Assembly (NCBI RefSeq): GCF_041146345.1
Contig: NW_027191404.1
Coordinates: forward strand, 1,426,001-1,490,000
Source of the DNA: Neodothiora populina
Lineage: Eukaryota
Direction: 5' to 3'
DNA: 64,000 bases
The translations under genes and the position numbers were made by a program. The notes under the pieces were generated by a model. It had not been told where the DNA came from, did not search any database, and was given only the letters and a program-made list of their open reading frames with translations. This document shows, in pieces, positions 1,451 to 59,199 of this stretch (position 1 is its first letter; each line of letters starts with the position of its first letter).

Positions 1451-1540
1451 GGTCGGTTAGCTCAGTTGGTTAGAGCGTGGTGCTAATAGCTTCCGCTACA
1501 AGGCACGCCAAGGTCGCGGGTTCGACCCCCGTACTGACCA
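1451..1540 (+). tRNA. tRNA-Ile(AAT), with 16-nt intron (1489-1504)
   Basis: Acceptor GGTCGGT/ACTGACC; D-arm TAGCTCAGTTGGTTAGAGC; anticodon stem TGGTG/CGCCA with AAT at 1485-1487; T-loop GGTTCGACCC; TTTT immediately after. Confidence 0.95.
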
Positions 1541-15314: not shown

Positions 15315-16356
15315 ACATCGACCGAGGCAGCACGGGCAGAAAGAGACGTCACAGGGAGCAGATATTCGCATCAAGACATGGGAAGATGAACGTTGCCTGG
15401 TCATGACGCGGCGCACCGAGGCATAGTGGGCCGTGGCGTTCTGGGCGAAGGAAGGGCTGTACAATACTGCATTTAATCTGTGGGCAATAGATTCACCATT
15501 GATACCTTCCCACCTGCCTTTGGTCCACACATGACCGCTCACCAGTGCTGGGATGTAAGGTAGCTCGAGGGCAAGAGGCTTACGAGTTGGAGCTCAACAT
15601 ATGGTCTCAAGGCACGACAGATGACAAAACATCACATGAACCGAAGCTCGATCATTACAAAGCAGTGTGTGACATTGTCAAGACCGAAGACTTTGTGACT
15701 TCGTACCATTCGTTTTCCTGCACCTTGAGCGTGAACGCGTGAGGCAGTACAGTACTGTACCTTGAGGTATCCAATTCAGTGTAGAAGGTATACGTCACCG
15801 CCTGCCTATAACAGACTCCGGCGGAGGTTGAGGCCCGAGCATTTGCAAGAAGCATGTGGCGTGCTTGTGATTTGTGGTCGAGTAGAACGCACGAGTCGCA
15901 CGAGCAGAGAAGCGATCAGAAATCACCATCGTAAGCAGGGCGTGCAGCATCGAGTTTCGAAAAGAGTCAAGCGGATCAAGTCTACTACTGTACCGTATGT
16001 GGCACGACAGCCGGTGCCCATTCCCCGCCATCTGATCATTCGTCGTCAGCGCTTTCGTACACAGCTGCCTGTACTTCAGCGTACTATAATGACTAGGTAT
16101 ATCTTGAGGGTGTATATAGCACATGTGATATAGTCCCGATAACTGCACCTTCCGTACACTCCAGATCGTGTCGCCTTTGACTGCTACCTCCGACAAAAGC
16201 AGCAGCGGCGAGCACGTCCTGATGTCATTCGCATAGGATTCTCGATCCTCAATTCTCACATCCACATCAATCATACCTTACCCTAGCTAGGTCTGGGACA
16301 ACCCCCGGACAAGCAGGTCACACACACCTACACTTTCTCCAAACCACACCTGCAGC

Positions 16357-19300
16357 ATGCCCGTCTCACCAGCAGAGAGGGAGCTGGGCATTTTCCTGCG
16401 CGATCTGCCCCGCGAATATAACCACAGATACACAGAGGAGGCCGAGAATAAAGTACGGGAAACCCTCTTCCGCTCCCTGGCCGGCAACGACAATCACACC
16501 CTCCGCCTTCTTTTCCCCTCTGGTCCACCACCGACGGGACAGCCCTGGAGGCTACGTGATGCTCAGGGAGCAGTGGATGGGGCAGAATACACAGCGGCGG
16601 CAAAAGGTCATCCTTGCGGACACATCTTCAAGGCGGGCGAATCGACATACCACTGCAAGACATGCGCGGCAGACGACACTTGTGTGCTGTGCGCAAAGTG
16701 CTTCACCGAGAGCGACCATGAAGGCCACATGGTGTACATAAGCGTCAGTCCCGGAAATAGTGGATGCTGCGACTGCGCCGACGACGAGGCTTGGGTCAGA
16801 CCCGTCCACTGCTCCATCCATTCCGCCGACACCGACCCCGCCACGCAAGACAAGGGCAAGACGAGTCAACCCTCTGCTCTGCCGGACGAGCTGCTCGAAC
16901 TCGTTCGTATGACCATCGGCAAGGCTTTCGACTATCTCTGCGATGTCTTCTCCTGCTCGCCCGAACAATTGCGTTTATCCAAGACGGAAGAAAGTGTAAA
17001 GTCCGATGAGCTGCTGTCGAGGCTCACCTCCGACCGCTACGGTGGCCCCGAGGTCATGGAGTCGGATGAAGAGTATGCCTTGATTCTGTGGAATGACGAG
17101 AAGCACACGGTCACAGATGTGCGGGACCAGGTTGCAAAAGCGTGCAAGCAGAGGAAAACATTCGGCTTCGAGAAAGCCATGGAGGTCAACGACACAGGAC
17201 GCAGCATCATACACTACTCGAAAGACATCAAAGAGCTGCTGGCCATGGCTGCAATCATAGAACAACTCAAGGTGTCGGTGACGGTGAGATCTGCCAGGGA
17301 CACCTTCCGGGAGCAAATGTGTGGGACTGTGGTAGACTGGATATCAGACATCTCTGGCTGCAGCTACGCTTCCGATCCTCATATCCTGCGCAACACTGTG
17401 TGCCAGCAGCTTCTCCAGCCTTGGCGCATGGGAAGCGAGGCCACGAACGAGAGTGTTGGCCAGAAGGGCATCGACGATCACGAACACGAAGATAACGTAC
17501 GAGAGCGACGTGCGAACGCTAGATGGTTTAGACCCATGGCTGGCATCAACATCGTGAGGGTCGATATCGAGCCCGACGACGACGGCGCCGATGATGATGA
17601 GGATGATGACGATGACGAGGGCGATGACGAGGACGGCGAAGAAGCCTTTATATTGGAGGAAGAGCTGGACGAAGCAATGGACGACGGTGACGAGCAAGAA
17701 GCCATGGAAGTCGACGACGACCAAGGTCATTTCGTTGTTCTTCCCGAGAACGATCTGGATCTGGAGATGGACACCGAGGGGCCTGGCGAGATATTTGAAG
17801 CCACTCATGCTGGCTATCCGCCTCCGCCCGCGCCGCCTGGTGGAAGAACCCGACGGACAAGAGCGGCCACAAATGAGGAATCCGACGAGAGCGAAGCCCA
17901 ACAATCCACTCAATCCGTCGCTCCTTTCTCCAACCTACCCAAGACGCCCAAACACAAGGTGAGGCCTCCGAGGCCGCCCAGACCTGCCAAATACTGGCTC
18001 GAAGTTCCGGACGAGTACAAATCGCGATCTGCGAACTCACCAGAGGAGGACCTGTGGCAAAGGGTCCGCCTTGACTATCTAATTCTCTACGATCTCAGGC
18101 TATGGAAGACTCTGCGTATAGACTTGCGCCATCTCTACATTAGCACTGTCGTTACTGTGCCACAGTTCAAGCGGATATTGGGTCTGCGCTTTGCCGGCTT
18201 GTACACGATGCTTGCCCAGCTCTACCTTATTGCGGACCGTGAGCCGGACCACTCGATTATCAATCTGTCCGTTCAGATGCTCACAACGCCCTCCATCACC
18301 GCCGAGGTTGTCGAGCGCGGCAACTTTCTGACCAACCTAATGGCAATCCTATACACTTTCCTGACGACTCGCCAGGTTGGCTTCCCGTCCGACGTCAACC
18401 CCACCGCGACCCTTGCATTTGACCAAGGAGCTGTCACCAACAGGCGCATGTTTCATTTCTTCATTGACACACGATACATGTTCCAGTCCGCATTTGTGCA
18501 GGAGAAGGTACGCACCGAACAACGCTATCTTCTACAATTCTTGGATCTCGTCAAGCTTCACCAAGGCATATGTCCCAACGTCCGTGCTGTTGGTGAGCAT
18601 GTGGAGTATGAAGCAGATGCTTGGATAAGTGCATCTATGATCATCAAGGAGGTGAACAGGCTCTGCCGACAAGTTGCCGAATCTTTCAAGACTGTCGAGC
18701 ATTCCGACTTTGCACCGATCCAACGCGCTATCCGTCACACTGCCCAAGCAACATTCATCAACGCCATCGGCACCGAACGAAGTAGATTCACCGGGGCGGA
18801 AACCAAACATGCCGAGAAATTCCATTGCTTCCATCACGCCAGGACGCTGAAGGTGGATCCAGAGGTAGACCGAAGTCAGTTTGCACACGTCTATCCGACG
18901 TCGGACGCCATCCAGGGCGGTCGCGACTACAGCATACCATCCTTTGAAGTAGCGAACGGAGCTATGAGCTTCCATCACCCATTACATTATCTGCTGTCAT
19001 GGCTGCTCGAAGCAGGGAAGAGTATGACAAGAACAGAAATGCTCCGAGTCCTTCACTTCGATCAAGCCGATCAAAGGGATCCATGGACGCCTAATTGGAA
19101 GCCCGCCCCTTCGAACGGTCCTTTCAAACCCGATGAGGTCGTGTCCATGCTTTTCGAACATCCTCTACGCGTGTGTACGTGGCTAGCTCAGATGCGTGCT
19201 GGAATGTGGGTTCGCAACGGTATTACCTTGCGCCATCAGATGCACACTTACCGCGGTACGTCCCAGCGCGACGTATCCTTTCAGCGAGACATCTTGCTGC

Positions 19301-22300
19301 TGCAAGCTGGTCTTGTTCTCTGCGGTAGTGAGGAGGAACCTCTGGGCGTGCGATTTCTTGCGCAGATCATCGACCGCTTCAACCTCAATGACTGGGTGTG
19401 CGGCGTATACGATCCACCAGAGGAGTACGATGAGCAACAGCGTCTTGACGTCGTGGAAGAGTTCTATCATCTGCTCATCGTGCTGTTGAGTGAGAGACAG
19501 AACCTGATCCCAGGTGCAGACAATGCCGACTCGCATGTCAAGGCTATTCAGCGGGATATTGCTCACGTCTTGTGCTTCAAGCCGCTGTCATTCTCTGACA
19601 TTTCTGCACGACTGACCGACAGGGTTGCGGACTCGGAAGAGTTTGACAGCATCCTAGAAGACATGACCACATTCCGCTCTCCTGAAGGCCTTAACGATTC
19701 CGGCACCTTCGAGCTACATCCCGAGTTCATCGAACTGGTGGATCCTTACTACGCGTATTATAACCGCAATCAGCGCGAAGAATCCGAGAGTATTCACAGG
19801 CAACATATTGCTAAGCTGACCGGCAAGGCTGCTGCGGATGTTGTCTACGAGCCCAGGCTTCCTGCGATAACCTCTGGCCTTTTCCGAGACTTGAGTGCTT
19901 TTACCCAGTCTCCACTCTTCGAAGATGTCGTCTTTTTCGGACTCGCATTCCCGTTGAAGATTCTCGAGAAAGACCCCCAGTGCTCGTTCTTCACGAAACT
20001 CGAGGGGTTGACGCACGTGATTCTACATCTCACACTGATAGCAGTCATGGAAGACAAGGGTCCAATTGACAGTGCCGAAACGCAAGAAAGCTTCATAAGG
20101 CTTGCGATTGGCACGTCTGCCTTGACACCATCACCAGGCACCATCTTCGAACTATTGTACAAATACCTAGCTACGCAAGAGTTCGCTTCGTGCGCGCCAA
20201 AGATCCGTCTTATTCTAGACAAGATGTCACAGAAGTGGCCTGAGGCGTTCGCTGATGCGGTAGCTGTAGTGAGACCGAGCGGCAGACCTGTCGCCGATCC
20301 GGCTTCTAGTGGAAATGAAGATGCCAAAGCACTCAAGAAAAAACAGGCACTCGAGCGACAAGCCAAGGTCATGGCTTCATTCAAGGCCCAGCAGAATTCA
20401 TTCATGGCAAACCAGGGTCTGGATATCGAAGATGAGGATTTCAGTGACATGGATGAAGACGCAGAGCAATCCACACATACAGCACCAGAGGAAAGAGCCT
20501 GGGAGTTCCCCACTGGCTCATGTATGCTCTGTCAGGAAGAGACCGACGACAAGCGATTATATGGAACTTTCGCCTTCATCGGGCCTAGCAGGATACTTCG
20601 ACAGACGCCAGTCAATGATGAGGACTTTGTCAAAGAAGTACTCGAAACACCTCCGAGTCTGGATCGCTCCGCAGAAGATATCAGACCTTTCGGAGTCGCT
20701 AAAGGCGCGGAAGAGACATTTCAGAAGATCAATGCAGACGGCTCTGTGTCGGTGCAGAAGCGACAAGGTCTTTCCAAGGGTTTCCCAAAAAGTGAGAACA
20801 TCGAAGGGCCGGTTGTAACAAGCTGTGGACATTTGATGCACTACAACTGTTTCGAGACCTACATGGTTGCTACCGAAAGAAGACACGCGACCCAGATTGC
20901 TCGTAATCATCCAGAGCGGGCTGATTCGAAAGAATTTCTCTGCCCGCTCTGCAAAGCTCTGGGCAACACTTTCCTACCGATTTTATGGAAGGACAAGCGT
21001 TTTGGTTTTCCAGGAGCATTGGCTAAAGTGGATCAGACGATCGATTATGACAACTGGTTGAAGCATACAGGTCCTCACGAGCTGCTGGAAACAGCGCAGC
21101 TTCCTCTTGTCTTCAACTCATGGCGACAAGGACACCTTGACTACTTGCAGACAGCTCTGAACCCTACTCTGGCTACCACACTGCCGCAGCTAAGACAGTC
21201 GTCTCCTGCACCTGCTGAGGCGTCTGGGACCGACTACATGTCAGACGACTTTCCTCCTCCGGAGCCTACTCCACTGGAGCGCTCTCGTTCTGCTCTACCT
21301 GAGCTCGTTCAAAGAGCAGCAATCGAGCTTGGTCTAGTATCTCGTCCTACAAACTCCGAGCCACAGAGCCCTCCTCCGGCCGAAGAGCTCCGACACGCCT
21401 TCACTCGTATTGAGACGAGCATGCGTCCGAATAAAGTCATCAGCTCGGAGAGTACCTATCTAGAACCAGGAACCCAAAGCTCCAGTGTGCAGACCTCGGA
21501 AGCGCTTGCCAACGCACTTGCATTCACGATTTCGAGTGTTGAGATTGCTCATCGTGGCGTAGCTCCAGCCGACGGTATTGTGAATACCACAGTACTAGAC
21601 GCTGTGCCTGAGCAGACAATGACCACATTGAAGATTCTCTCGGAAACCCTCACATCTATCACAGCGCAGGCAGCAACCAGACCGTTGCCTATTGCCGGTG
21701 CCGATTCAAGGGTGCACCGGTCCTGGTATAGCCAACTTGGACATTTACTCGGCCAGAGTGTCCTTGATAGTACATTGTTTTCGAGTCATTCTCTTCTCGA
21801 AAATGATCTGTTCATCTTCTTTGCCACGTGCACTGTAAACGAACTCCCGATGGGCGACGATATGCACCACGTTCTTCGCCTCTGTTTTTCTGCAGAAGTG
21901 ATCAAAGTCCTTCTCGTCTTTTTTGGCAGGCAGTCTTTGGGCGGACAGAAGTTGGACCCGGCTACCAAGCGATGGGAGCACCCCATCGACGAGCCTGTTT
22001 CTTATTTCCAACAGTGGATCACTTCCAACCACGAGTGGCTGACCAGCCACAAGGAAGATGGGTCGGGCTTTCCATGCGCAACAGCACTCCGTCTAGCGAC
22101 TCGGAACGACTATCATGACGAAATCGACATCGCCGACGGGACTCCATGGCCCGAGCTGCTTCTGCAAGGCGACATGGCGGCTGCGTTGGAGACTTTGATA
22201 GACAGATACGCCCTCGTCTTTCTGCGGAAAGTTCTCATCCTTCTACACGTACGTTTTGGTATCGACTTCTCCCTCTCGGATGAGTTCATCGACCCCAACA

Positions 22301-22953
22301 CTACCGAACTCGCACGGCTCGCACGTCTCCTCCGTCTACCTCAGCCCTCGGAGATCTTCCAACAACTAGGCTCCGCCACAGCCTCAGGAGAAGCCTTGCG
22401 CAGACTCGCATGCAAATGGGCACTGGCAGCGTCATCGAGCCTTCCATTCCACGTGCTCCGCCCGAAAGCCCAATCCCTCTCCCACCCATCCATCTTCGAA
22501 CTAGTAGGCCTGCCCAAGAACTACGACACGCTGACCGAAGAAGCAATCAAACGGCGATGCCCAACAACAGGCAAGGAAATCACCGACCCAGCAATATGTC
22601 TTTTCTGCAGCGAGATCTTCTGCTCGCAAGCCGGCTGCTGCATGCGCGACCGCAGCAAAGGCGGCTGCTACCAGCACCGAGCCAAATGCGGCGGCGCCAT
22701 CGGCGTGTTCATCTCTATCCGCAAATGCATGGTGCTGTTCTTGCATAATAGCCACGGCAGCTGGTTCCACGCCCCGTATCTGGACAGGCACGGTGAAGTG
22801 GATCCGACGCTCAGGAGACACCACCAGTTGTTTCTGAATCAGAAGAGGTACGATCGCTTGATCAGGGAGGCGTGGCTCAGCGGGGGCGTGCAGAGCGTCA
22901 TCAGTAGACGGTTGGAGGGCGATATGAATACTGGGGGCTGGGAGACGCTGTAG
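16357..22953 (+). CDS. UBR1: N-degron (N-end rule) E3 ubiquitin ligase Ubr1, 2198 aa, apparently single exon
   Basis: UBR box (CGHIFKAGESTYHCKTC..CCDC), ClpS-like LWNDEKH, RING-H2 (CMLCQE..CGHLMHYNC..CPLCK), C-terminal APYLDRHGEVD and GGWETL end. Confidence 0.96.
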   Translation: MPVSPAERELGIFLRDLPREYNHRYTEEAENKVRETLFRSLAGNDNHTLRLLFPSGPPPTGQPWRLRDAQGAVDGAEYTAAAKGHPCGHIFKAGESTYHCKTCAADDTCVLCAKCFTESDHEGHMVYISVSPGNSGCCDCADDEAWVRPVHCSIHSADTDPATQDKGKTSQPSALPDELLELVRMTIGKAFDYLCDVFSCSPEQLRLSKTEESVKSDELLSRLTSDRYGGPEVMESDEEYALILWNDEKHTVTDVRDQVAKACKQRKTFGFEKAMEVNDTGRSIIHYSKDIKELLAMAAIIEQLKVSVTVRSARDTFREQMCGTVVDWISDISGCSYASDPHILRNTVCQQLLQPWRMGSEATNESVGQKGIDDHEHEDNVRERRANARWFRPMAGINIVRVDIEPDDDGADDDEDDDDDEGDDEDGEEAFILEEELDEAMDDGDEQEAMEVDDDQGHFVVLPENDLDLEMDTEGPGEIFEATHAGYPPPPAPPGGRTRRTRAATNEESDESEAQQSTQSVAPFSNLPKTPKHKVRPPRPPRPAKYWLEVPDEYKSRSANSPEEDLWQRVRLDYLILYDLRLWKTLRIDLRHLYISTVVTVPQFKRILGLRFAGLYTMLAQLYLIADREPDHSIINLSVQMLTTPSITAEVVERGNFLTNLMAILYTFLTTRQVGFPSDVNPTATLAFDQGAVTNRRMFHFFIDTRYMFQSAFVQEKVRTEQRYLLQFLDLVKLHQGICPNVRAVGEHVEYEADAWISASMIIKEVNRLCRQVAESFKTVEHSDFAPIQRAIRHTAQATFINAIGTERSRFTGAETKHAEKFHCFHHARTLKVDPEVDRSQFAHVYPTSDAIQGGRDYSIPSFEVANGAMSFHHPLHYLLSWLLEAGKSMTRTEMLRVLHFDQADQRDPWTPNWKPAPSNGPFKPDEVVSMLFEHPLRVCTWLAQMRAGMWVRNGITLRHQMHTYRGTSQRDVSFQRDILLLQAGLVLCGSEEEPLGVRFLAQIIDRFNLNDWVCGVYDPPEEYDEQQRLDVVEEFYHLLIVLLSERQNLIPGADNADSHVKAIQRDIAHVLCFKPLSFSDISARLTDRVADSEEFDSILEDMTTFRSPEGLNDSGTFELHPEFIELVDPYYAYYNRNQREESESIHRQHIAKLTGKAAADVVYEPRLPAITSGLFRDLSAFTQSPLFEDVVFFGLAFPLKILEKDPQCSFFTKLEGLTHVILHLTLIAVMEDKGPIDSAETQESFIRLAIGTSALTPSPGTIFELLYKYLATQEFASCAPKIRLILDKMSQKWPEAFADAVAVVRPSGRPVADPASSGNEDAKALKKKQALERQAKVMASFKAQQNSFMANQGLDIEDEDFSDMDEDAEQSTHTAPEERAWEFPTGSCMLCQEETDDKRLYGTFAFIGPSRILRQTPVNDEDFVKEVLETPPSLDRSAEDIRPFGVAKGAEETFQKINADGSVSVQKRQGLSKGFPKSENIEGPVVTSCGHLMHYNCFETYMVATERRHATQIARNHPERADSKEFLCPLCKALGNTFLPILWKDKRFGFPGALAKVDQTIDYDNWLKHTGPHELLETAQLPLVFNSWRQGHLDYLQTALNPTLATTLPQLRQSSPAPAEASGTDYMSDDFPPPEPTPLERSRSALPELVQRAAIELGLVSRPTNSEPQSPPPAEELRHAFTRIETSMRPNKVISSESTYLEPGTQSSSVQTSEALANALAFTISSVEIAHRGVAPADGIVNTTVLDAVPEQTMTTLKILSETLTSITAQAATRPLPIAGADSRVHRSWYSQLGHLLGQSVLDSTLFSSHSLLENDLFIFFATCTVNELPMGDDMHHVLRLCFSAEVIKVLLVFFGRQSLGGQKLDPATKRWEHPIDEPVSYFQQWITSNHEWLTSHKEDGSGFPCATALRLATRNDYHDEIDIADGTPWPELLLQGDMAAALETLIDRYALVFLRKVLILLHVRFGIDFSLSDEFIDPNTTELARLARLLRLPQPSEIFQQLGSATASGEALRRLACKWALAASSSLPFHVLRPKAQSLSHPSIFELVGLPKNYDTLTEEAIKRRCPTTGKEITDPAICLFCSEIFCSQAGCCMRDRSKGGCYQHRAKCGGAIGVFISIRKCMVLFLHNSHGSWFHAPYLDRHGEVDPTLRRHHQLFLNQKRYDRLIREAWLSGGVQSVISRRLEGDMNTGGWETL

Positions 22954-50302: not shown

Positions 50303-50424
50303 TTTCCCCAGCTGCTCCATGTTCACATAAACATCCAAAGTCTACTCAATTGACTCATGGTTGGACAAACATCAGTCTTCCCACAAGAGCTGGTTCAGTC
50401 TGGTAGAGCGGTTTCCTCGCTGCA

Positions 50425-53400
50425 ATGGCCCGGAAACAGGCTCCGAAGAAGGCTGCTCCTCAGCAACGTGGACAACTGAGCATCACATCATGGACGACAG
50501 GCAGAACACTGCCTACACCTGCACAAAGCGTGTCAGACCCAGAATCAGATACAATCAGTGTCCTTCCCGCAGACCATGTCAATGTGGGACTCAGAGATAG
50601 AGACTCCGAGTCCCCTCAGATCGGTGTGCAAAGCGACGATCTTGACCAGCCAGATCCCTATATGAGAGTCATCTCTAGCGAAGGTCAGTTCAAACGAGGG
50701 CGCAGATGTACCTGGAGCGTATTCACAGATTGCTAACATGACTCCCTTCTTAGAATACCCATTCAAGAAGAGACGTCTCCTTGTGGCTGTAGAGAGTGAG
50801 CCGCCTTCCCTCGATCACAAATCCCCCAATCATCTTACCCATAAGGCAGTTCCCTCGCCCGCGCCTAGTCATCAATCCTCCGAGGTTGCGCCTGAAAGCC
50901 ACCATACCGTTCCTCACATCGATCAAGACATCACACCAAGAGCGGAGCAACCATCCGCCGGTCGAGCACGGCGCGGAAAGCGTATGAGTTATGCAGCAAT
51001 GTTCAAACAAGATTCCGTTGCCGGCGACGGTGGTGAACAGGCATCGCCAGATTCCGAGGATGACAACTTTGCCCTCCCGGACGAGCCAGAGATGCCTTCG
51101 GAAGAAGAGGAGGAAGAAGAGGAGGAAGAAGAAGAAGAGCCAGATTCCGAGACCAATGATTCGTCTGTGGAAGAGGAGCAAGAGGCTAAACCTCGTCGCG
51201 ACACAGCTTCGAAAAATGCAAACCGCAAGGGCAAAGCTCCGAGAAACGCTATCCCTCCACCTTTACTCAGTAGCATAGACAAGACAAACGACAAAGCCAA
51301 AGATCATATGAAGAGGCTGATCAAGCGTGCGAAAGATGGTGTAGACTTGAGCCTCCCTCCACTCTTCAACATCCGCGATATCTTCATACACATGACGGAA
51401 AAGGGTCTAAGGCTTAAGAATGGCTTTGCAGATACTCTCAAGGCGATAGAGTCGCGCCCGCTACGTGTGGCAACCATGTGCTCTGGTACAGAGAGCCCAC
51501 TGCTTGCGCTCGAGAGTTTTAGAGAGTCATTGTCCGCTCTCAATCTTCCTGGCTTCAATATTGAGCATGTTTTCAGCGCCGAGATCGAGCCTTATAAACA
51601 AGCATACATCGAGAGGAATTTTCACCCACCGACAATATTCAGGGACATTGTCGAAATCACACATTCCGAAGATGGCTTCGCCACTACCGCGTATGGTGCT
51701 AGAGTCGCCATACCAACGGATGTGGATATTGTCATCGCTGGAACCGCTTGTGTTGATTTTTCGGGCCTCAATCGCAGGAAAAAGGGCCTTGACGACGGTG
51801 GTGAGTCTGGAGACACATTCACTGCAGTCTTGACATACGCGAAAAAGTACCGCCCCCGTCTGCTCATCCTTGAGAATGTTTTCAACGCGCCCTGGAATTC
51901 AATGCTTGCTCGCTATGAGGCCGCGGGCTACGCCGCGACCGGCGTTTTGGTTGACACTAAAGAATACTACCTGCCTCAAACCAGGCATCGCGGTTACATG
52001 ATCTGTGTCGACAAGGAGAGTGCGACTCTAGCAGGAGCAAATGCTAGCCGTATAGTCGAGGCATGGTCTGAGCTGATGGAAAAGTTCAAGCGACCCGCAA
52101 GCTCGCCCGTGTCAGCCTTCTTGATGCCACACGACGATGGCAGTGTGATACTCTCCCGCGATCGTGTCAACCGACAGTCAGTCCTTGATTCTGTGCTGCG
52201 AGATGTCGACTGGTCCAGATGTGAAGAGCGCCACAAAGTCTATCGCTTGACCGCGAAACTCGGCAACGCCAAGCCTTATACCTCGTGGGAACCTAGTGGA
52301 GCCATAAAGCTCTACGACTATTGTGATCGCGCCTGGCATAACGCCCAGGTCGAACGTATCTGGGACTATGAAGACTGCTCTATGCTGCGCAAAGCTCGCG
52401 ACTATGACATCCAATTCAAGACACGAGTCTGGGATACTTCGCAGAACATTGACAGATATATTGATACCTCTCCGTTCGGAGTGTCGTCCTGCCTGACACC
52501 ATCTGGCAATTTCTACGTCACGGACCGTGGTGGCCCTTTGACATTTGCTGAAAGCCTAGGTTTGCAGGGCTTACCTGCCGAGAAGTTGATCTTCACCTCG
52601 GAGACCGAGAGGCAAATCCAAGATCTTGCTGGGAATGCGATGAGTTCGACCGTGGTAGGCGCTGCTCTGCTGTCGGCGATGATAGCCGCGAAGGACGTTC
52701 TGCATTTGGCTGCCGAGAAGAGAGAGCCTGTACGCTTACAAACCCAAGATCATTCAGCAAGCTCTCCACCGACCTTGCAGGGTAGCTTGGTCGCTAAGGA
52801 GCTAGGGTCTCGCGATCTCGCAATTGACTTCCAGCGATTGATAGAGCATGCTTCTTCGTCAGCCAGCAGGTGCTATTGCGAAGGTCAAATTTCCACCGCG
52901 GCAAAACCAATCCAGAGTTGCACGCTTTGCGGACATACCACTTGTCTCAGCTGTGGCGGCAAACCTACTCATGACTATGGGGTTCCAAGCCGCGAGGAGC
53001 GCAGAAGTCCTCAGAGTTTCGTTCAAGAGTGGCGACCCGGTTTCCCAATATGTCTAAGCTTTGATGATCCGCAACGTGTGGAAGACTTCATCTTGCAGAT
53101 TATGGGCAAGAGAAGCGAACAGCCAGGACATAAAATCAACCAAGTCTTGAAAAAGTCCTACCCCTCGATCGTGAGGAACGCTGTCGCTGGTGAATTCAGA
53201 CTCAGTCACTTCCGAAGAGCTTCTGTCTGGAAGGTCGTATACGAAGCCGCTGACGCTCGTCTGGTATTGACAATTGATCCGAAAGGCTTATATTGGGAAC
53301 TATTCTGCTTACCTGCAGCGAACCTAGCTGGCAACGACGTTCATCGTCACTTTCTCGAAAAACCCGTCGCTAAGGCCATGGTAGGCGATTCCGGTTTACT

Positions 53401-56400
53401 GGGTGTTGCTTGGCAATGGCGCATTCCCGAAGATATCAAGTTTGGTCTCAAAGTAGCCACAGGGGGCGAAATGGTACCTTCCTGGACTGCGAGATTGAAA
53501 TTACCTGGCGAGGAGAACATGAGACTCTCACAGCTGCTCAAGATAACGTATGCCACGGGTCAGAACAGTGACTTGCAAGAAGACATCTCCGGCACTTATG
53601 AACATCTGAGATACTGTGGAACTGCTTCTGAAGCGTTGTATCGCAGGACCAAACCCGACGACGATCAATTATACCTTTTCCTTGATCCCGCACGTCTAGG
53701 TGATGGTAAAGGGGACAAGTTCGTCTTCTCGGATAATCCTGAGCGCTTGCAATACGATGAGACTCGGAACGTCATCGCTTCTATCGGCTGCGACTGGAGA
53801 CCATGGAACAGCGACGTATCGTCAGCTATTGGCATGACTGACAGTTACTGGGTTACCGAAGCTAAGACCTCACTGCTTGCTACAGAACCGAAGCTCGAGG
53901 TATACGCTCATTCAGATCTGAATCACTTCTCTGGGCAACATACTTGTTCATATGCTCATTGCATCGTCCGCTGCGATTTCCAGGTCGATGAAGCCCTGCC
54001 CACCTTATACCAGGGTTCAAAGCAGATCAAGCCAGATGACAAGGCGTTCTTCCGAGCGTTTGCTTGGGCGCTCACTCCAGTCCAACAACACCTTAAATAT
54101 GGCGAAGAGTTCACTATAACCTCAGATCACTTCGCCTCCTGTCCGACCTGCGCGCCCGCGTTACCCCAGATAAACTAGACTCTCAGCCAAAATAATGGAA
54201 AGTCATTTATGCGACCATTCGAGGAGCCAAAGTCTGCAACAGACTACGAGGTTTTATTGAAGACCCGCCCTGACATCTTCACGACCAGAAGCTCAATAGA
54301 TGGCAATCGTGGTACAATTGACATAGGATTCAATAGCCTCGCACTTGCCCACCGGGCGCTTTCCAGATTACACAGATTGACTGCCAAGGGGTATATTTCC
54401 ACCAGCTGGAAATTCGACGCAAGTTTCTCCGATATGCCTCTGTCACTTCCTGACTTCCATCTTAGAAGCAATGACCCAAACTGTCCTTTGCATATTGCCC
54501 TGCCCGCATCTGTAAAACTTTGGGAGAAACAAGAACAATCTCTAGCTTGGATGAGAAGCCAGGAAGCCGGTAATGGCAGGGAGGTCATACTCGAGGCAGC
54601 CGAGGAAGCCATCTTGCCTCATCTTGGCTGGCGTGCAGAGGCTAGATCGAAGGCTTCATTATGCATCAAAGGTGGTATACTGGCCGATCATCCTGGCTTT
54701 GGAAAGACCATAACCTCGCTTAGCTTGATCTATGCAGATTTCGTTGACCACGCAAATGCACCAGATCTGCACAAGGCTATTACAGAACGAATGAGCCCTC
54801 TTTCCGTCGATGCAAGCCAAAGCCCCATCAAGATTGCTGCAACGCTCGTTATCTTGCCCAAGACGATTACAAAGCAGTGGTACGAAGAAGTGGGACACGT
54901 ACTCGGCCGAGAATATCAGAAGAAGACTCTTTTGATCGAAGACATGAAGGACCTGAACAAGTACAGCGTCCAACACTTCCGCGATGCACGAATCATCCTC
55001 CTGAATCGTGGAATCATTGGCCGAGAGAGCTATTTGCAACGTGTCGCTAAGTTTGCAGGTCTCCCTGAGTATGGACCAGCGACCAAAAAGCGAGACTTCA
55101 AAACCTGGCTTGAACTCGCTGTACCAAAGGTCGCCGAGCATGCCAATATCCTGACGAGCAAGGGATCTAGTGTTCTGTCGAAGACCATCAAGGAAGAGAC
55201 AAAGGAGAGACTTTGCAATAGGACAGTCCGTACCTTTGCCAGTAAGCGTCTGAAGGGCCAAGCCTATGTAGAGAAAGGACAAAACAAATCTCGCCATGCT
55301 GAGAAGGAGGCGGACCTCGAGCGCACTATCTCGACGCCTAGTGCCAGGGAGTTGAGCGGCTGCGTTCTTTTCGAGATGTTCCATTACAATCGAATCATCG
55401 TAGATGAGTTCTCATATTTGCTCGACAATGAAGGAGGATCCATGACCTCGATGACCACATTGAGCGCAGACAAGCGTTGGGCGTTGTCTGCTACACCGCC
55501 CTTGAAAGATGCGTATGATGTCGCGCAGCTCGCCCGGGTGATAGGAATACCGCTCTCACGGGGGTTCTCTATGCCTGGGCTTCTTTCAGCAAAGAACTTA
55601 GCCGCGCTCCAAGAAGACATGACCAACGTGGAATTGTTCGAGATGTTCTCTGAGGCTCCTTCGTACATCATGTTAGGTCGCATCCACGAGTTGGCGCAGA
55701 AGTTTCTTGACGCCTTTGTTCGTCAGAATATACTGCAATTCGCCGACTTCCGATATGATGATCACATCGTTCCGGTGCACCTGAACTTGGATCATAGAAT
55801 TGTATACAACGAGCTGTCTCAGCAACTCAACTCACAGGATATGAGGATCAAGCGCTCGAGCAAGAAGTCCGTCGAAGGTCAAGATCGTGAAGAACATATT
55901 CATGACTCTGTACGTGGACTCAAGCTTGCTGAACAGGCTCTATCTAATCGCGCGACTTTCTTTTCTTCTATCGAGCTCGGCCACAAACATGGTGGCATCC
56001 ATGCGCTGCTCGAGAAACGTAGAGAACAATGTGATATCCACAAGAGCGAGATCAGACACGCAATCGATGTGAACCGCTTGTTGAGTTCCAAGTTGAGGGG
56101 TGAGGAACGCCCGTTCGAGGAGTGGCAGAAGACAAATTTGGACAGTGACGAGATCGGAGATCAGGGAGTCTCCGACACAATCAAGACCATGATCGCCGCA
56201 GCCCGGCCTGTCACCAAAGCGCTAGAGGTATCAGATGAAGAGCGCTCCGAAGACGAGACATCTGACGACGGTGGCAAGTCAAAGAAAAAGAAGAAGTCGA
56301 AGGAATCGAGACCTGTTCTGGACCAGGCTAGGGCAAAGCGTGCGAAGTTGAACTTCCTTGTCAAGAAGCTATTGGCGGTCACGCGATCCATCCGTTTTGT

Positions 56401-57430
56401 CGAAAATGCGCGGCGCTTGCATGGTGCACAGGAAGAAGGCAAAGAAGTCGACCGTTGTGATTTTCAGGATTGTGCTGGCAATAGAGCCTTTTCTCAGCTC
56501 TCGGCGGCCTCTGTGTGTGGTCACATAGTCTGTGATGCATGTTATCAGAAGTCGCAGTTGCTAGTCGGCAACTGCGGTGCTCCAGGCTGCAGAAATACCC
56601 TCCAAGAGTTCCAACTTCTGAAAGCCAAAAAGCTGGTCTCGGTCAACGAGGCATCGGCGAATCCTCAGGATCAGAGCCAAAAGATCGCTGCCGTGATTGA
56701 GATCCTTCGGCGAATCCAGGAAGTCCGCCAGCAAGCGATTCTTTTTGTGCGTCAACACGAGCACATCGAGACTGTACAGGCGGCACTCGAAACAAATGGC
56801 ATCAGAAGCGAAGCCATCAACAAAGAAACCGCCAAACGCATCGAAGACTTTCAGAGAACTCAGGCCGTCGACAAGAAGACAGTCATCATAATAAATGCCG
56901 ACGACGAGTCCGCAGCAGGCACTAACCTCACCAACGCCAATCATGTGATCTTCCTTTCGCCACTGCTAAAACTTGATCAATACGGGTACGAGTCTCAAAT
57001 GGCGCAGGCAATCGGTCGTGTGCGTCGACCAGGCCAGAAGAACGACATCTTCGTCTACCGCATGGCTTCACTATACACAATCGACATCGACGTCCTCGAG
57101 CACCGCGAACGCCGCGACAGGATCCTCATGGAGAAGAAACCAAACGAAGTCTGTGGCAGCAAAGACCCAGCATCACGCGAGGACATCGACATGGACGCCG
57201 TTGATACTATCACCGCACCCTTCACTGCAGAAGAGACCTCGCAGACCGCCGAGCGCACTCAGTTGATCAAAGACTGCGATGGCCGTTTCAAGCTCGTCCC
57301 CAAGAGTCTTCTTTTGCGCAGACCCGAGAGCGAGGGAACCGTGGACATCCAAGGTCGCGCGCGAGTCAAAGGTTTCGAAGAATATATCGCCTTGATCAAG
57401 TTCTCGAAGGCTTACAACGCCGACGACTAG
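50425..57430 (+). CDS. DNMT5: DNMT5-type C5-cytosine DNA methyltransferase fused to SNF2 ATPase/RING (~2311 codons), interrupted by one in-frame TAG at 54176-54178. Intron 50684-50753
   Basis: MTase motifs ATMCSGTESP (I), AEIE (II), AGTACVDFS (IV), LENV (VI), PQTRHRGY (VIII), LAGNAMS (X). SNF2 motifs GGILADHPGFGKT, IVDEFSY, LSATP, AGTNLTNANHVIF, QAIGRVRRPGQ. RING-like CGHIVCDAC..C..PGC. ORFs 50738-54178 and 54209-57430 share a frame with only 10 sense codons between them. Confidence 0.92.
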
Positions 57431-59199
57431 AGGGGAGATGAGGGTGTATGTGAAAGAGTGACAGTGAAGGGTTTCTTGTTCATTCTGGATCGATCAACCA
57501 TCGAAAGGAAACTGTTACCTACTCGCTTCACCACTTTCTAACTTTCTTCGAAGTTTCTCGCATTTGTACCCAACCGATTAGCCAGGCACTTGCACTCGAA
57601 TTGCATTACCAAGGCAGACATTGTATAGAGTAATAAACTACTGCAAATCTTATCTTACTATACTGTACATTCGAAGCCCTTCGCGCTCGAACAGAAACAG
57701 ATAGAGAAGGAGAAAAGGAAATGTGGACAGATCCTAAATCGAGGTGTCGTCCTGCTTTGTATAGAGTATATAGCTTAGAAAAGCAAACCAGAATAATAAC
57801 CAAAAAAGTTGTACAAGTAAATGGAGAGCTCAGCGTCATCTTACCTGTGCGCGAGGTATGTGAAGATGTGAAGATACACAGATATGAAGACACAAAGATT
57901 CGAAAACATGATATCTTGCAGCCGTGATCATGTCAAGATATGGAAATGTGGATGAGGGCGTGGCATTTCGGATCTTTTTGTGTCCCGTACTTGTCCCGTA
58001 TTGTGTTGTCTTGTCGTTGCGTGCCGTGTCTCTGCTTGATTTCTGCTTGGGTCTTGTGTCGTGAGACTCGCCTGTAATGGATCCATTGATGGATGCAAAG
58101 CAGTATTTATCTCTAGTGGTTTTCCAGCGACGATGGCCAAACAGCAGCACCAGCAAAGAAGCATCCATCACTAGCACCAGCACCAGCAGAGCAGCAACAG
58201 CACAGTATCGAGTGGCCTCTGCATTTGCCACAGACAGCTCTATGAGAGCAAGCAAGGTACATTAAGTAAGCAGTCACGTTCTAACCGCGCTCACACTCCT
58301 GATGGTCAGTCCTGCAACACAGCAAAGGCACGATGATGATTTGCATTCCGGATCATAGACGGCTAGTTGATCTTGAATTCAGAATAAGATCTGTAATCAA
58401 AAGTTTTCTTTAAAATGATATAGCATGACTAGGTAGAGTAAGGTAAGTAAGTACCGAGAGGCCCCATGTAGGCCCGTAGGGTACTGAAGTGCAGAGGAAA
58501 GAAGAAAAAAAGCCGAAAAGAATCTTGTCTGTGTCTTTGTCTGGAGAAGAAGAAAAAAGACACCCAGTTGCATTGGTGGGAGTACCATGCACGTAATGAA
58601 GATCCGAAAAAGAGAAGGGGGAAAAGTGTATGGTGAAATGTAACCGGCTCTTATTCCGCCTGCGGTCGTAGTGAGAAGTGAAGTAAAGAAGAAAGAAAAA
58701 GAAAAGAAAAGGCATTACGCATTCGAGCAGCCTGGGACTGCTGATTGCTTCCGCGTTGCTTGTGGTTGTAGAAAATGCTCATTGTGCCCCCCCGCCCCTT
58801 GGTTCGAAGTCTGTCATTATTTGAATAATTCTGTGGCGAAGTACGGGTAAGGATACTTGCATAAGATCCTAGGCGCCCGCTGATCCTTTATACTCGTCGC
58901 GAGCGCCAGTGCTGTAGGTTGTCGTGAAGATCGACTGAAAGCATGGTGTATACCCATTTGCTAATCGATCATGCTTGAGGGTGGTGAAGACTGTAAAATG
59001 CTTGATGAGGTCGGACTTCTGAGCCGCCGTTTAGAGATATATCGATGCTTGATGATCTTGTCGGCTAGCATAATGCTGGAGATCGCTCTTTCATCATAAT
59101 AGTCAAGTGCGAAACTGTTTCGATTTGCGCTTTTGTGGGACGCGAGGTGGCGTGAGCCCATCTACGAGTGGATGTATAGGTGGCAAGTTCGACGGGTTT

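Follow-up and report, generated by a model that had tools for sequence, protein, structure and literature searches.

The window analysed here is a 64,000-nucleotide stretch of contig NW_027191404.1 of Neodothiora populina, and its subject is a gene for the DNA methyltransferase DNMT5 that is interrupted by one in-frame TAG. The stop consists of T54176, A54177 and G54178 on the + strand, and the letters quoted around it in an earlier sequence-only reading of this DNA are confirmed as written. It is the sole separator between two long frames in one phase, 50666..54178 (1170 codons) and 54179..57430 (1083 codons), both counted from stop to stop. This agrees with the earlier description of a single TAG beyond which the frame runs on for about 1080 codons. 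Both strands of the window were scanned for same-frame neighbours of at least 120 codons each with one stop between them, and six such pairs were found. The DNMT5 pair is the only TAG case and by far the longest; the remaining five have frames of 122-379 codons and are separated by TAA or TGA. Because the two neighbouring frames each exceed 1000 codons and are collinear with one protein family, a chance event is ruled out. In the gene model based on RNA contigs, the TAG is codon 1210 of 2293.

The domain content of the two parts is that of DNMT5. The upstream part contains a Pfam DNA_methylase domain (PF00145, E 1.3e-19) at residues 263-634 of the translation of window:50756-54175, and the downstream part contains SNF2-rel_dom (PF00176, 5.5e-18) and Helicase_C (PF00271, 4.4e-7). 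A RING-type match is weak (PF14447, E 0.003), its 17.9 bits falling under the 27-bit cut-off. The near-invariant RING-like Cys/His columns of the homolog alignment (1906-1945) are retained, and none is among the columns at which this protein deviates. The methyltransferase motif columns C242-E246, C332, E373/N374, R410/R412 and G626/N627/A628 are also retained; we take C332 and E373/N374 to be the catalytic Cys and the ENV motif. The Walker A residues G1316/K1317/T1318 and the pair D1550/E1551 occupy invariant columns and are retained, as are the SNF2 motif columns S1578/T1580 and Q2084/R2088/R2091/Q2094 (motifs III and VI). The sequence-only reading had called the methyltransferase, Walker A/B, RING and helicase motifs intact. 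This is correct at the level of the columns, with the proviso that the RING assignment depends on its Cys/His columns and a sub-threshold Pfam match. The proposed DNMT5 identity is likewise borne out by the Pfam domains, by the homologs and by the match to a solved structure: the protein is sister to a DNMT5-type protein of Delphinella (support 1.0) and matches the chain of PDB 7r76 with E 2.4e-27. It departs from DNMT5 as an uninterrupted single polypeptide, the TAG at codon 1210 being present in both the DNA and the RNA contigs.

The stop occupies the position of a conserved tryptophan. Residues 960-1330 of the read-through protein, in which X stands for the stop, were used as a query and gave 61 longer homologs of 1223-3892 aa. 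All are single chains, and nearly all have methylase and SNF2 domains. The closest is from Delphinella strobiligena (P0002), with 49% identity in the searched region. When all 61 were aligned over 130 residues on either side of the stop, the TAG column was W in 60 and F in one, a partial protein of Aureobasidium melanogenum. The surrounding C..CAP..P motif columns are conserved in 60-62 of the 62 rows, so that the motif CAP..P.I.W, which the sequence-only reading had expected here, is found with its flanking C, C, P and P conserved. Since Trp is near-universal in this column, a single G-to-A change at 54177 made the stop; the converse claim, that one A-to-G change at 54177 would restore the Trp, holds as well. 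Nineteen shorter homologs were also found. Seven cover the site and all seven read W (P0063-P0067, P0075, P0079), and the others start downstream. A second stop at the same Trp was found neither among these 19 nor among nine further fragments retrieved with P0044 as query. No inspected relative carries the TAG, the closest relatives searched being only about 50% identical. Two metagenome scans were empty: one for relatives of the downstream part gave 53 pattern matches, of which none was confirmed, and one for the 28 bases of the site, with A or G allowed at 54177, gave no match.

Two of the shorter homologs have unusual ends. P0070, which is 87% identical to P0044, starts with the Met that immediately follows the conserved Trp; when a matching N-terminal partner with its end at that Trp was sought, nine fragments were retrieved, none of which ends there. 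The N-terminus of P0069 resembles an out-of-frame ...GLRWKLT motif that, judging from likely codons, rejoins the frame a few codons on. In Cladosporium-like fungi, DNMT5 may be broken close to this point, or these ends may be artefacts of open-reading-frame calling or assembly. Fragmentary homologs break at many positions along the protein, and we therefore claim no hotspot at the Trp site.

Three public sequencing runs match the stretch (X1, X2 and X3). X1 and X2 are from one sample, which may be the source of the window. The DNA run, X1, has a single contig over 50300-57600 with no other letters and a word depth of 31.7, and it reads TAG. The X2 contigs contain GT..AG joints that are missing from the DNA contig, which means that X2 contains spliced transcripts. 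Record 4 of X2 (3983 nt, 50850-54832, depth 5.47) has no other letters and no joint and reads TAG; record 5 (54802-57600) has no joint and one other letter. The DNMT5 locus is transcribed, and the transcript consensus at codon 1210 is UAG, unedited and unspliced at that point. This RNA evidence is a contig consensus, in which minority variants are dropped, from an unspecified, probably vegetative culture. An intron that removes the stop was considered and rejected: the codon is not enclosed by GT and AG at a spacing that would suit an intron, and the RNA contig is collinear over 50850-54832. The homologs are collinear across the site, with no indel in the window protein, which also argues against an intron. 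The earlier statement that the stop cannot credibly be spliced out is thus upheld by the transcript and the homologs alike.

Several further observations concern the gene model and the runs. X2 is labelled 'DNA?' in the run index, yet its contigs behave as the transcriptome of the same sample. Intron 2 (50796-50849) is retained in record 3 of X2 (111 nt, straight through 50769-50879) and spliced in record 2; its retention would insert 18 residues and keep the frame. A run of Glu codons (EEEEEEEEEEEEE) lies at 51096-51150, within the poorly conserved N-terminal part. X3, which has another organism label and comes from another study, contributes two short contigs (50474-50695 and 54693-54886) of at least 99% identity, neither of which reaches the TAG. 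Given this identity, another sample seems to contain low levels of this fungus or of a nearly identical one. The protein collection yielded P0068 as the only model of the locus and none that contains the methyltransferase half. P0068 covers the SNF2 half alone, so an annotation of the genome would miss the DNMT5 identity of the locus.

Table 1. Features of the interrupted DNMT5 gene (positions in the window)
Feature	Position	Strand	Description
Exon 1	50425..50683	+	259 nt; ATG 50425-50427 is the first ATG of frame 50407..50736; 3' end from an RNA-contig joint
Intron 1	50684..50753	+	70 nt, GTCAGT...CTAAC...TAG; joint 50681->50752, cut +2, in X2 record 2, absent from X1
Exon 2	50754..50795	+	42 nt; between both joints of X2 record 2
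Intron 2	50796..50849	+	54 nt, in frame, GTGAGC...AG; joint 50795->50850 in X2 record 2
Exon 3	50850..57430	+	Holds the TAG; no joints in X2 records 4 and 5
Exon 3, 5' of stop	50850..54175	+	C5 DNA methyltransferase domain ~51542-52657; Cys-rich linker ending C..CAP..P..IN
In-frame TAG	54176..54178	+	Codon 1210, near-invariant Trp position; same in X1 and X2 record 4
Exon 3, 3' of stop	54179..57427	+	1083 open codons; SNF2 ATPase ~54530-55546, RING-like cluster ~56510-56593, Helicase_C ~56681-57034
Terminal stop codon	57428..57430	+	End of the long frame; C-terminus ...KFSKAYNADD fits homolog consensus ...KFSxAFxxDD
P0068 gene model	54551..57430	+	959 aa, SNF2 half only, internal Met start; 100% identity to residues 1266-2224 of P0001

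Apart from the stop, the gene is undamaged. A full-length alignment was made of the window protein and 48 of the 61 homologs, 13 rows having been removed beforehand as incomplete or redundant (P0003, P0004, P0008, P0014, P0021, P0024, P0034, P0036, P0038, P0041, P0049, P0053 and P0054). A leave-one-out comparison over the 230 columns with conservation of 95% or more finds six deviations in the window protein, one of which is the stop. The other five, two upstream of the stop and three downstream, are R506K, E513P, D1157E, G1974S and L2046I. Other orthologs deviate at 0-9 columns, and three evidently poor models at 23-34. The absence of any other disablement, claimed from the sequence alone, is confirmed in the frames, the conserved columns and the motif columns. 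A FastTree phylogeny of 2009 trimmed columns places the window protein as sister to Delphinella (1.0), within a clade that contains Aureobasidium (0.98), and its terminal branch is 0.55 long, against 0.52 for that of its sister. In Tajima relative-rate tests against Delphinella, none of five outgroups gave a significant result for the N half and one of five did for the C half (P0013, p = 0.019; P0013 is a poor model). The rates show no consistent difference from Delphinella, and the rest of the gene looks fully constrained. If the downstream 3249 nt were neutral, they would remain open at P >= 0.05 only to a divergence of about 2.2-2.8%, counting substitutions alone. The bound drops to about 0.8% when indels are added at an assumed rate of 0.08 per substitution. 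Given so narrow a bound and an open downstream half, the stop is either young or harmless to the downstream half.

We favour, with a probability of about 0.55, a recent loss-of-function allele of DNMT5 that arose by a G-to-A change, TGG to TAG, at codon 1210. An orthologous, transcribed DNMT5 gene of a Dothideomycete near the Dothideales has gained one genuine G-to-A change at this Trp codon. As the message in the sampled RNA is neither spliced nor edited at codon 1210, translation should end after 1209 residues and would yield a methyltransferase part without its SNF2 motor. The SNF2 ATPase step of Cryptococcus neoformans Dnmt5 is called 'essential for DNA methylation' (bioRxiv 10.1101/2020.01.05.895227; also PMC7862722), and its Walker A mutant K1469A had no detectable methyltransferase activity (bioRxiv 10.1101/2020.01.05.895227). 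Since the ATPase is essential there, the truncated product should by analogy be inactive, and the allele would presumably be null or strongly hypomorphic, with no rescue of the message. Everything else in the gene looks selected, which is why the change is probably recent. It may have originated as a polymorphism of the isolate or the species, or it may have been acquired in culture. A null allele, which the sequence-only reading had listed among its alternatives, is the simplest reading. The present data do not separate it from stage-specific editing: under either one, the conserved Trp would be replaced by a real TAG, the gene would otherwise be intact and the transcript of such a culture would be unedited. 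As a nonsense mutation in a known gene, the finding would be ordinary.

Several considerations weigh against a null allele. A knockout of this gene by a chance TGG-to-TAG mutation is itself an infrequent event, with a probability for one isolate that our own rough count puts in the low tenths of a percent. The probability of a premature-stop-codon (PSC) site that is corrected by editing is, on a similarly rough count, of the same order once a 10-20% chance that the class edits is included; the missing hairpin and flank preferences roughly halve that estimate. An intact, expressed gene with TAG in place of an ancestral Trp is also what characterises the 71 editing-restored pseudogenes of Fusarium graminearum, FgRID1 among them (PMC10776026, PMC11156358). 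The full-length Dothideomycete orthologs that were retrieved are all intact, which points to selection against DNMT5 loss in most cases, with the qualification that broken copies are under-represented among predicted proteins. Finally, the RNA is a low-depth contig consensus of unspecified stage, in which partial or stage-specific editing could be hidden.

The possibility that the UAG at codon 1210 is rewritten to UGG by a sexual-stage ADAT-type A-to-I deaminase is held tentatively, as an unlikely but substantial one. Full-length, active DNMT5 would then be made only in sexual development, and vegetative cells would contain a truncated, inert enzyme or none. TAG is the sole stop that a single A-to-I change turns into Trp, and here it takes the place of a residue that is W in 60 of 61 homologs. 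Elsewhere the 2293-codon gene is undamaged, and its rates are not consistently raised. Transcripts of the gene are present, and 16 of the 71 comparable Fusarium pseudogenes are reported to be abundantly transcribed in hyphae, infection and perithecia alike (PMC10776026). There is also a precedent in a DNA methyltransferase, FgRID1/PSC49 (PMC10776026, PMC11156358). In F. graminearum, 71 pseudogenes have a TAG that is corrected to TGG with a median editing level of 79%, and the corrected TAG stops derive mainly from TGG (PMC10776026). Hyphal editing of CHE1 is the subject of PMC11169179.

The local context gives this possibility partial support. In F. graminearum, U stands at -1 of 85.7% of edited adenosines and A or G at +1; of the UAG/UAA triplets, almost 9% undergo editing. 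Position -3 weakly favours G, -2 weakly favours U, +2 weakly favours G, and +3 and +4 weakly favour either purine (PMC4817773). The window site, A-C-U-[A]-G-A-C-U, has the preferred triplet with U(-1) and G(+1), and this UAG core alone fits the preferences. The weaker ones are unmet, with A instead of G at -3, C instead of U at -2, A instead of G at +2, and C and U instead of A or G at +3 and +4. The adenosine is predicted to be unpaired (pairing probability 0.008 in folds that include 30 or 40 flanking nt per side). Its position is between two hairpins, immediately 5' to a stem of 4 bp and outside any hairpin loop, and the fold does not stand out from shuffled sequences (z 0.11). Of the sites in F. 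graminearum, 62% are in hairpin loops, as are more than 70% of the highly edited ones (PMC4817773). Hairpin-loop position and flank features are tendencies of edited sites and not requirements. The site is compatible with editing and is without the optional features that accompany high editing levels.

Further evidence counts against editing. The only RNA contig across the site reads A at 54177, as a consensus from an unspecified growth stage. No relative shares the TAG, though none closer than about 50% identity was available. Sexual-stage A-to-I mRNA editing by Tad2/Tad3 is described for Fusarium, Neurospora and Sordaria, which are Sordariomycetes, and for Pyronema; the reported range is limited to these, and genome-wide editing was not found in Aspergillus nidulans or Botrytis cinerea, according to PMC11156358. 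As of a 2020 review, pseudothecia-forming fungi were still unexamined for editing (PMC7306014). In literature that covers few subscription journals, we found no report that ties DNMT5 to A-to-I editing and none of A-to-I mRNA editing in any Dothideomycete. The remark in the sequence-only reading that such editing is poorly established in this class is in accord with that search. Its proposal of A-to-I recoding is supported in its premises only. The UAG at a conserved Trp and the intact gene stand, but the transcript reads UAG, the site is not in a hairpin loop and the flanks match only at U(-1) and G(+1).

The stop could also mark a tolerated split, in which a 1209-aa methyltransferase part is made alongside a separately translated SNF2 part, or in which the truncated part keeps some function. 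We regard this as improbable. The stop interrupts the linker that joins the methyltransferase and SNF2 halves, the SNF2 half has stayed intact, and an ATG at 54209 lies 10 codons past the stop. The SNF2-only P0068 as sole model found for the locus and the start of the homolog P0070 directly after the conserved Trp point in the same direction. However, the Met after the stop is also present in the intact Delphinella ortholog and is therefore not a new start codon. Eukaryotic ribosomes would not be expected to reinitiate once they have translated a frame as long as about 3.6 kb, which counts against a split. The RNA contig is continuous across the stop and gives no sign of separate transcripts, with the reservation that transcript starts are not visible in contigs. 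Conservation extends to the linker Trp and its motif, which can be aligned with the solved CnDNMT5 chain, all 61 longer homologs are single chains, and the breaks of fragmentary homologs are spread all along the protein with no enrichment at the site.

Ribosomal readthrough of the UAG, which would give some full-length protein at all stages, is highly improbable. The downstream frame is intact, and any stop codon leaks at a low level, both of which are in its favour. The context AAC-UAG-ACU-CUC, however, is unlike what we take to be the leaky contexts (the CAR-YYA type after UAG, and UGA-CUA). No stable structure lies downstream of the stop, and no suppressor tRNA was found in the 64-kb window, the sole tRNA of which is Ile-AAT.

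The weakest explanation, that the stop is an assembly or base-calling error or a by-product of repeat-induced point mutation (RIP) of a duplicated copy, is hardly credible, although TGG to TAG is a RIP-type change (CpA to TpA on the opposite strand). The DNA contig and the spliced RNA contigs agree on TAG, so a calling error, one of the alternatives named in the sequence-only reading, is rejected; their agreement is that of one sample, and a change private to that culture would look alike. RIP, another of those alternatives, is rejected in its heavy form: the indices of 0.57 (TpA/ApT) and 1.31 ((CpA+TpG)/(ApC+GpT)) are as in unmutated DNA, and the 2-kb bins of the window give similar values, none of them being RIP-affected or AT-rich (GC 0.45-0.56). 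Only one disabling change is present in the gene. The protein collection, which includes the locus's own model P0068, yielded no paralog above 49% identity.

The consequences differ with the reading. If the TAG is a plain knockout, it would be a further example of the ready loss of a cytosine methyltransferase in fungi. CG maintenance methylation would be expected to be absent from the isolate, which would make it useful for epigenome work. If the TAG is edited, it would provide the first evidence of restorative A-to-I mRNA editing in Dothideomycetes and a second independent DNA methyltransferase gated by a genomic stop, after Fusarium RID. Epigenetic maintenance would in that case be restricted to the sexual phase by a recoded stop.

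The surroundings of the gene are ordinary gene-dense DNA that encodes MFS transporters, a UBR1-type ligase, an amidohydrolase and a serine hydroxymethyltransferase. The UBR1-type N-recognin E3 ligase occupies an unbroken 2220-codon frame at 16291-22953 (+), with zf-UBR, ClpS-like, UBR1 winged-helix and PRT6_C domains. The tRNA of the window is a tRNA-Ile(AAT) of 90 nt at 1451-1540 (+). A34 of tRNA-Ile(AAT) is a natural substrate of the Tad2/Tad3 deaminase, which is the mRNA editor of Fusarium.

Three known systems bear comparison with the locus. The PSC pseudogenes of F. graminearum, and PSC49/FgRID1 in particular, likewise have a single in-frame TAG, derived from TGG, in an otherwise intact and transcribed gene that encodes a DNA methyltransferase. 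In contrast to PSC49/FgRID1, which is edited, the contig consensus of the window gene is unedited and its site is not in a hairpin loop. DNMT5 and RID belong to different methyltransferase families, and the host of the window gene is a Dothideomycete. The second system is C. neoformans Dnmt5 (PDB 7r76, 7r77, 7r78 and 7t02, deposited as 'DNA repair protein Rad8'), which has the same domain order of C5 methyltransferase, RING-like, SNF2 and helicase C; DNMT5 structures are also the subject of bioRxiv 10.1101/2021.10.01.462825. The Cryptococcus linker aligns with the window protein (E 2.4e-27), and the TAG pairs with the Trp of ...CAPRPPKIHW..., whereas the window coding sequence is broken at that Trp. 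A chromodomain was not found in the window protein, in which Pfam detected no domain beyond those named above; among the homologs, PF00385 is listed for the Tremellomycete proteins alone, and identity to basidiomycete DNMT5 proteins is only about 30%. The third comparison is with the DNMT5-type proteins of other Dothideomycetes (Delphinella, Aureobasidium, Zymoseptoria, Cladosporium and others), which are full-length, collinear orthologs with 35-52% identity. At the position where the window gene has its stop, all of them read Trp except the partial protein of A. melanogenum, which reads Phe.

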